Made by a program: the position numbers and the translations under genes. A DNA stretch of 64,000 nucleotides from Eledone cirrhosa (Eukaryota): assembly GCA_964016885.1 (NCBI GenBank), contig OZ024740.1, forward strand, positions 361,832,001 through 361,896,000, given 5' to 3'. The stretch's first letter is position 1; each line of letters begins with the position of its first letter. Below the pieces are notes generated by a model. The model saw only the letters and a list, made by a program, of their open reading frames with translations. It ran no database searches and was not told the DNA's origin. Of this stretch, positions 17,173 through 18,138 are shown piece by piece.

Positions 17173-18134
17173 ATAAACAAATAACGAAACGAAATTAAAT
17201 TTCGTTTCGTTTGTAACTCACTTTTGTATGACTGACGCTTAAACAATTAAGTTAAAAATGTACATCCACATATGTATACTGAAATACTAGTATGCATATG
17301 AATACACACACGTATACATATGTAGATGTACCAAGTCTTTCACTGGTCACTTTACTGTGAGTATCCAGCTATTCTGTATGTAAACACACAGACAAACCGG
17401 TTTTTAGAGTCATACTGGTTTTTGAGGAAACACCTTTCCTCTATTCTCCAGAAAGCCAGACAAGGAATATTGAACTAGTTTCGTTGTTGTTACAACTCAT
17501 CAGCAATATTTACCTATCTACCGGCCTTTCTGGAGAATCGTAAAAGCACATATCGTTATATGCTTTTTCTATGAAAATTAGTAGTGGGCAGACTAATTTG
17601 CATAGAGTGTGAGTACGTACCGGTTCAACGGAGACGATAAAAACAAATAACGAAACGAAATTAAATTCTATTAAATTCCAGCTATTCTGTATAAGCGTCA
17701 GTCATACAAAAGTGAGTTACAAACGAAACGAAATTTAATTTCGTTTCGTTATTTGTTTTTATCGTCTCCGTTGAACCGGTGCAAATTAGTCTGCCCACTA
17801 CTAATTTTCATAGAAAAAGCATATAACGATATGTGCTTTTACGATTCTCCAGAAAGGCCGGTAGATAGGTAAATATTGCTGATGAGTTGTAACAACAACG
17901 AAACTAGTTCAATATTCCTTGTCTGGCTTTCTGGAGAATAGAGGAAAGGTGTTTCCTCAAAAACCAGTATGACTCTAAAAACCGGTTTGTCTGTGTGTTT
18001 ACATACAGAATAGCTGGATACTCACAGTAAAGTGACCAGTGAAAGACTTGGTACATCTACATATGTATACGTGTGTGTATTCATATGCATACTAGTATTT
18101 CAGTATACATATGTGGATGTACATTTTTAACTTA

Positions 18135-18138
<4 letters not shown>
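17173..18138. mobile_element. Inverted pair of ~468-bp hammerhead-bearing non-coding units (family A, retrozyme-like)
   Basis: Minus unit 17173-17667 has terminal redundancy; plus unit 17691-18138; hammerheads at 17466-17510 (-) and 17872-17916 (+); no meaningful ORF; flanked by (TA)n. Confidence 0.8.
17872..17916 (+). ncRNA. Minimal type I hammerhead ribozyme (family A)
   Basis: aatattg-CTGATGA-gttg taacaa caac-GAAA-ctag-TT-caatatt; an identical copy lies on the minus strand at 17466-17510. Confidence 0.85.

Follow-up and report, generated by a model that had tools for sequence, protein, structure and literature searches.

The window, i.e. the whole 64,000-nt stretch of Eledone cirrhosa DNA analysed here (contig OZ024740.1), contains at 17171–18142 two head-to-head arms of one 466-nt repeat, with their 3′ ends pointing outward and (TA)n on both sides. 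Positions within the repeat are given as U numbers, which refer to a reference unit U (468 nt) located at 49690–50157 of the window. The minus arm (17171–17667, minus strand; 497 nt) comprises one 466-nt unit plus 31 nt, such that 17637–17667 repeats 17171–17201 (30 of 31 positions alike), and its outer 3′ end corresponds to U399, referred to hereafter as the long site; its final bases are overlapped by the left (TA)n target run (17161–17176). The plus arm (17688–18142, plus strand) corresponds to approximately one unit that starts at U325–331 (17688/17692) and has its outer 3′ end at the short site (U325–330), next to the right (TA)n target run (18139–18179). This arm lacks 17 nt after 17779 and is otherwise the same as the minus arm, save for bases at the TA edges. 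The interval between the short and long ends, or ‘tail’ (17171–17245, minus strand), is ∼70 nt long and contains a 13-bp hairpin. Between the two arms lies a junction filler (17668–17691) composed of a slip of 8 nt and of 16 nt that match 17364–17379, a composition that was likely generated by one or more template jumps of a reverse transcriptase (RT). No ORF of at least 120 aa was found at the locus or in the 466-nt unit, which has a GC content of 35–37%, varies in length from 461 to 477 nt, and has no LTR.

A second locus in the window contains an inverted arm of 131 nt (49562–49692, minus strand), the outer end of which is off-site (U109), and a plus arm (49690–50556, plus strand) of one 468-nt unit plus 399 nt (1.85 units), which terminates at the long end (U399) beside a (TA)n run (50554–50601). 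An earlier sequence-only reading had stated that the plus copies start at different points of the unit and that the minus arm of the first locus stops at the same position as the 50556 end next to (TA)n; both statements hold, the starts being U325–331 and U1 (at 49690) and the shared stop being U399. The redundancy that it described in the minus arm is also present, but measures 31 nt instead of ∼25 nt. The second fixed site (U325–330), the 17-nt deletion, the junction filler, and the Penelope-type fixed 3′ ends are additions to that reading. The inverted arm of the second locus abuts (at 49562) another repeat family, which is bordered by (ATGT)n and the tandem and inverted copies of which lie at 26846–27590, 35088–36031, 38515–39268, and 47839–49562. 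Further hammerhead-like cores, belonging to other repeat families, are located at 6213, 11492, 38418, 55864, and 57340 of the window, where 55709–56124 and 57080–57495 form an inverted pair (99% alike).

Each unit of the tandem repeat carries what is, by its sequence, a type I hammerhead motif (CUGANGA/GAAA/UH core, three helices, and an open helix I). It is made up of CUGAUGA, stem II (5 bp, 4-nt loop), GAAA, helix III (2 bp, 2-nt loop; within the palindrome ACUAGU), GUU or GUC as the cleavage triplet, and stem I (6 bp). At the 17171 locus, the motif is found at 17467–17509 (minus strand; U-A variant of stem II, with GUU and cleavage predicted after 17473) and at 17873–17915 (plus strand; predicted cleavage after 17909, GUU), the latter being composed of stem I (17873–17878/17910–17915), CUGAUGA (17879–17885), and stem II (17886–17899), followed by GAAA and the palindromic helix III. 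Stem II reads GTTGT-AACA-ACAAC in both arms (17886–17899, plus; 17496–17483, minus) and GATGT-AATA-ACATC at the second locus (49764–49777, 50232–50245, and the minus copy at 49603), where the two plus-arm hammerheads (49757 and 50225) are of the A-U variant with GUC. The compensatory swap in stem II (GTTGT/ACAAC vs GATGT/ACATC) and the GUU vs GUC triplets of the two loci were correctly described in the sequence-only reading, except that its coordinate for the second stem II, 49751, falls in stem I, stem II beginning at 49764. An Rfam search at the gathering score returned no match; Hammerhead_HH9 was hit by both arms with an E-value of 5.3e-8 and 38.6 bits, below the gathering score of 52 bits. 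GUU, which is a weaker cleavage triplet, is present in the most numerous recent subfamily and lengthens the helix III palindrome to 8 nt. The predicted fold of the unit is more stable than those of shuffled sequences (z = −10.3; none of 100 shuffles as good), and in the predicted two-copy fold helix III pairs between the copies to give a dimeric hammerhead, a form that has been described for such motifs (PMC4209133). In 125 loci, recurrent variation in the hammerhead (U63–102) is limited to the pair that was swapped, a single base of the loop, and the base at the cleavage site, and the core is unchanged save for single-locus changes, with shared changes at none of 13 core sites (p ∼0.05). The hammerhead as a whole is not significantly poorer in shared changes than the remainder of the unit (4 of 40 sites vs 78 of 387 elsewhere; p = 0.14).

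In the 3.0-Gb host genome, which in its microsatellite density is perhaps reminiscent of octopus genomes, an exact search for cores in which each of the two swap positions is A or T gave 9,369 matches. A reversed control pattern gave none, which, like the HH9 E-value, speaks against a chance match. These comprise 5,240 U-A, 3 U·U, 3 A·A, and, by subtraction, 4,123 A-U cores, i.e. 9,363 of 9,369 are paired; a related pattern retrieved nine cores in which the 5′ base of the pair is C or G, two of which are G·U. A midpoint-rooted tree built from 79 distinct complete units groups the U-A units in a single clade within the A-U units; two U·U units from one locus branch at the base of this clade. 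The swap thus appears to be a single event on which thousands of copies count once, and because the copies of the two window loci belong to the two subfamilies (U-A and A-U), the difference between them is that one event. GUU arose before the swap, as 995 A-U cores have it; the 113 loci typed comprise 63 U-A/GUU, 44 A-U/GUC, four A-U/GUU, one U-A/GUC, and one U·U/GUU. The sequence-only reading had set the GUU/GUC difference beside the swap, but these 995 cores show that the two are not tied to one another.

Covariation across copies, the check that reading had named, is not significant within the family at the level of the whole unit. In a comparison of changes common to at least four loci with single-locus changes, performed per pair under five reference folds, pairing was kept in 44–52% vs 33–35% (p = 0.08–0.33); loci L101–L115 were left out because they had been picked for mismatches. 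An allele-level structure test (p = 0.003–0.04) was dropped as support, as it counted both partners and included the mismatch-picked loci. Three to five other double changes were identified, e.g. U43/117 and U133/142. A sister family with a 424-nt unit, 70% identical to the 466-nt family, has kept the core and the loop and has its stems rewritten; its pattern has 29,655 matches, the first 100 of which are all of the sister type. Among 19 chosen sister haplotypes, pairing is kept at five of the six stem pairs in which both bases differ between the families, a compensatory pattern characteristic of type I hammerheads (the associated shuffle p values ignore kinship); the sixth pair, which lies at the foot of stem II, is U·U in most of them. 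These kept pairs and the invariant core make selection on the ribozyme fold likely, on the strength of a few independent events; the sequence-only reading's case for selection survives in this form, the swap it cited counting as one event only. A two-armed insertion of the sister family lies just upstream of the 17171 locus (16465–16883; long end on the left, short end on the right), next to a near-perfect 194-nt palindrome (16273–16466) with hammerhead-like cores at 16354 (plus) and 16385 (minus); another core is found at 16251 (minus).

The ends of the repeat were mapped at 126 loci (131 stretches, five pairs of which were joined; duplicates removed), which had been chosen by similarity, by position on C1, or by mismatch patterns. 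The outward 3′ ends fall almost entirely at two fixed sites ∼70 nt apart, with 94 of 205 at U322–331 and 101 at U396–400 (195 in total), and the resulting tail is 70–74 nt long. One short and one long end, in either order, were found in 71 of the 72 loci with two full arms (p = 3e-20); one locus, L113, has two long ends. Mixed ends were found at 83 of 85 loci when stub arms (found by motif) were included, and at all 21 fully seen two-armed loci of the position-picked subset; the rest of the 126 loci are 25 without a recognized second arm, 10 with an off-site end, and 6 not fully fetched. TA runs are abutted by 177 of the 195 fixed-site ends, which lie in (TA)n, where a target site duplication could not be told apart. 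An assembly artefact was rejected, because this fixed-end architecture recurs at more than 100 loci, with arm-specific mutations.

The inner 5′ ends (128 ends at 64 clean loci) are scattered round the unit (5–21 per bin; p = 0.03), and the excess seen near U390–430 may be partly an alignment effect. The cleavage site is not favoured by them (1 of 128 within 5 nt), arm ends are not enriched at priming sites (p = 0.15–1.0), and 39 of the 64 inner junctions overlap by at least 1 nt. Because the inner ends scatter and ignore the cleavage site, the apparent permutation is random 5′ truncation. The cleavage site is crossed by 193 of 220 arms, by 101 of them twice, and 148 of 220 arms are longer than one unit. 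The circular or multimeric template proposed in the sequence-only reading is supported by these arms, but the starting points that it had taken as permutation are random 5′ stops; read-through of the unit boundary, the absence of which it had named as a refutation, is present over the 126 loci mapped.

Several families of Penelope-like elements (PLEs) are present in this genome. A near-complete PLE in the window (58159–63470) has frames at 59006–59830 and 59803–62136, the latter being a 777-aa RT frame (RVT_1); an inverted copy of its 3′ end with the short end lies at 58159–58989, its long end is at ∼63435–63470, and its tail is 35 nt long. A 3′ fragment of the same element is located at 46454–47887. 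The tail of a second family, PLE-X, is 37–40 nt. PLE-C is abundant and young, with 38,779 candidates, the 150 scored being 95–100% identical, and contains a 1,167-aa open frame (L266:2688–6188) with a long asparagine/histidine/threonine-rich N-terminal insert, resembling the N-rich inserts of rotifer Penelope elements (PMC3846280). A hammerhead of its own is also present in PLE-C; the tail measures 59 nt, and 9 of 10 loci have mixed ends. Its Atlas neighbours carry RVT_1, HTH_animal, and GIY-YIG, and a Pfam search of the two PLE proteins gave no GIY-YIG match. The assignment to PLEs is based on RVT_1, the Atlas neighbours, and motifs in the two proteins that we take to be Penelope-like. Terminal-repeat pieces of either PLE-C or a close relative, with a CUGAAGA hammerhead core and long/short ends, are found in the window at 57845–58114, 63484–63989, and 6980–7245. 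A frameshifted PLE-C relative, 45–54% identical at the protein level, lies at 28717–30170 and contains a hammerhead-like motif within the 3′ end. The remains of a non-LTR retroelement (23118–26286, minus strand; three frames) match RVT_1 and zf-RVT.

The insertion signature of PLEs consists of an inverted 5′-truncated copy, a one-sided tail of 30–40 bp, and (TA)n targets (10.1101/2021.04.23.441226), and in vitro the tail is the interval between two internal RT start sites (PMC11167929). The 466-nt family has the inverted 5′-truncated copy head to head and a tail on one end only (71 of 72 loci), although at ∼70 nt this tail is longer than the published 30–40 nt and than any PLE tail measured in this genome (35–59 nt). 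The autonomous Penelope-like families of the genome (PLE-C, PLE-X, and the window element) follow the same end rule. As inverted arms with a one-sided tail are a Penelope-like signature, Penelope-like machinery is indicated. The family, a hammerhead-bearing, non-coding tandem repeat with no LTR, a GC content below 45%, and a unit of a few hundred nucleotides, is a so far undescribed member of the animal non-LTR retrozymes, and it is likely that this repeat is inserted into (TA)n in trans by a Penelope-like RT/GIY-YIG protein. Arrays of the unit would be transcribed and the transcripts cleaved by the hammerheads, probably acting as dimers via the palindromic helix III; monomers may then be ligated into circles. 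The Penelope protein would nick both target strands, and the two nicked 3′ ends would prime cDNA synthesis at internal positions of the RNA, the short site serving one strand and the long site the other. The cDNAs would each extend over 0.2 to many units, and joining of the two cDNAs by microhomology would yield the inverted arms and the apparent permutation.

No RT + GIY-YIG frame occurs in the unit or continues any of the arms mapped. A protein search of the genome for an autonomous parent yielded PLE-C only (150 of 38,779 candidates scored); parents suggested by the neighbours in L025/L091, L065, and L100 were rejected, these being separate nested insertions. None of the four PLE families compared could be linked to the unit as an autonomous partner by shared pLTR sequence, the unit having no detectable likeness to their ends (best z = 2.1, no better than shuffles), so that the PLEs of this genome are candidate drivers only. 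The tail of PLE-C ends in GAAACGAAAT, the same motif forms the tail hairpin of the 466-nt family, and the sister family has it with one change; as the unit aligns with PLE ends no better than shuffles do, the shared motif is taken as a lead only. At L016:1497–2241, a PLE-X long end is joined to a short end of the family, with a short inverted piece between them and TA runs on the outside only, which is possibly a PLE-X/family chimera formed in a single event (one case). A more specific scheme, which we consider rather unlikely in its entirety, is that a dimeric Penelope RT copies one retrozyme circle from two fixed starts, one per nicked (TA)n strand, with the subunits rolling; the one-long-one-short rule and the kilobase identical arrays in both arms would be the record of this process, and PLE-C, with its tail ending in GAAACGAAAT, would be the driver while having no further sequence in common with the 466-nt family.

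The copies might instead be truncated pLTRs of an autonomous PLE not yet found, with arrays formed by later unequal crossing-over. Their end structure is that of PLE insertions, and PLE copies are mostly 5′-truncated; however, no arm at the 126 loci passes into the reading frame of a PLE, 148 of 220 arms go on into another unit, and the long arrays with zero differences in both arms (L163) point to formation at or soon after insertion. In addition, the motif, with a 6-bp helix I and a 2-bp helix III, is canonical and not of the minimal PLE kind (PMC4209133). We consider this explanation improbable. Mobilization by LINEs or spread as a satellite would explain the inversion by twin priming and the hairpins as quasi-palindromes of the DNA, not as selected RNA structure, and appears highly improbable. 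Twin priming is expected to fix one 3′ end only and to leave the other variable, whereas both outer ends are fixed and exclusive here; there is no poly(A), and the hammerhead core is invariant across families while the stems co-vary, even if RT-bearing non-LTR elements are present (23118–26286) and the whole-unit covariation falls short of significance. Insertion in trans by Penelope-like machinery is the reading that we retain.

Concerning the template of this insertion, we lean slightly towards a circle, and a linear multimer falls only a little short of an even chance. L163 contains 17 identical units over both arms, at least 12 of which are in one arm, and L175 contains six; four other places with the exact unit of L163 hold 1–7 copies (39 of 235 candidates scored). 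As the mean arm-to-arm difference is 0.8%, such identical arrays were apparently made at or soon after insertion. Array sizes range from 2 to >30 units, and unit variants recur periodically in L194 and, every 2–4 units, in L092, L107, and L150, which fits either multimer templates or later expansion. Arrays of ∼50 and ∼30 units with periodic loop variants are found at G000:C1:81847174–81871603 and C1:5738326–5752444, the typical size being 1–3 units. The lengths of the two arms are uncorrelated (rho = −0.21), and arms do not stall at priming sites, which a shared circle might have produced. Among the locus-private variants, 17 of 176 are in both arms and 159 of 176 in one arm, the latter pointing mostly to later mutation. 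Contigs of four sequencing runs contain the same variants, and one 466-nt loop-back contig was obtained, which is also expected from a tandem DNA array.

In a stricter form of the linear alternative, the same element and enzyme would use an uncleaved multimeric transcript, such that the hammerhead is irrelevant to insertion and a circle is needless; we regard this as conceivable, if not the expected case. All of the read-through and permutation data fit it equally, the periodic variants of L092, L107, L150, and L194 are in line with it, and the most numerous recent subfamily carries a weaker triplet, GUU. The 17 identical units of L163, set against 1–7 copies elsewhere (39 of 235 candidates scored), argue the other way, as does the preservation of the core and stems in two families. 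Precedents exist on either side: an anole PLE was inserted in vitro without a need for hammerhead cleavage (PMC11167929), and related animal retrozymes accumulate as circles (PMC7229834).

Animal non-LTR retrozymes (PMC7229834; 10.64898/2026.07.22.740005) are likewise non-coding tandem repeats with one type I hammerhead per unit, low in GC, highly self-paired, arranged in dimers to long multimers, and co-occurring with PLEs. The unit of 461–477 nt exceeds the 170–400 nt given in PMC7229834 and is within the 51–972 nt of the 2026 preprint (10.64898/2026.07.22.740005). The former proposed PLE mobilization of animal retrozymes, and the latter argued that retrozymes are non-autonomous PLE derivatives and lists 21 Xenopus matches, whereas the unit analysed here showed no homology to a PLE pLTR (four families compared). 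As for inverted arms with two fixed exclusive ends, the word ‘inverted’ does not occur in the available text of PMC7229834, nor ‘tail’ in that of the preprint.

Endonuclease-positive PLEs (10.1101/2021.04.23.441226; PMC3846280; PMC11167929; PMC4209133) share with the 466-nt family the inverted 5′-truncated copy, the one-sided tail, (TA)n targets, a hammerhead upstream of the 3′ ends, and microhomology at the inner junction. Unlike these elements, the family has no reading frame, its arms consist of repeated units, its tail is ∼70 nt instead of 30–40 nt, and its hammerhead is canonical instead of minimal. The MRC1-type non-autonomous elements of the Chlamys clade (10.1101/2021.04.23.441226) are from green algae, and that clade is described as being without hammerheads and shares 3′ sequence with its autonomous partner, which the 466-nt family does not (four PLE families compared). 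The predicted motif resembles the newt/axolotl satellite-2 type (PMC7229834) in its short helix III, palindromic loop, and predicted dimeric action, but occurs in an invertebrate-like genome and has a helix III of 2 bp with a 2-nt loop; the U·U at the base of helix II in the sister family is reminiscent of HHR_Amex2 (PMC7229834).

Neither the 466-nt family nor, for any retrozyme, a count of the two-end rule was found described in the openly available main texts searched, and the main text of an octopus repeat annotation (PMC13282606) contains no ribozyme terms. The mobilizer of animal retrozymes has previously been argued from co-occurrence and pLTR homology. In the 466-nt family, the insertion footprint specific to PLEs is visible directly and on a large scale; very young copies are available, and the genome also holds ORF-bearing candidate drivers. 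That long and short ends are strictly paired, one of each, constrains the mechanism of PLE integration, pointing to two RT start sites with one use each, and the 466-nt RNA together with the PLE-C protein may provide a small system for trans-mobilization and rolling-circle reverse transcription.
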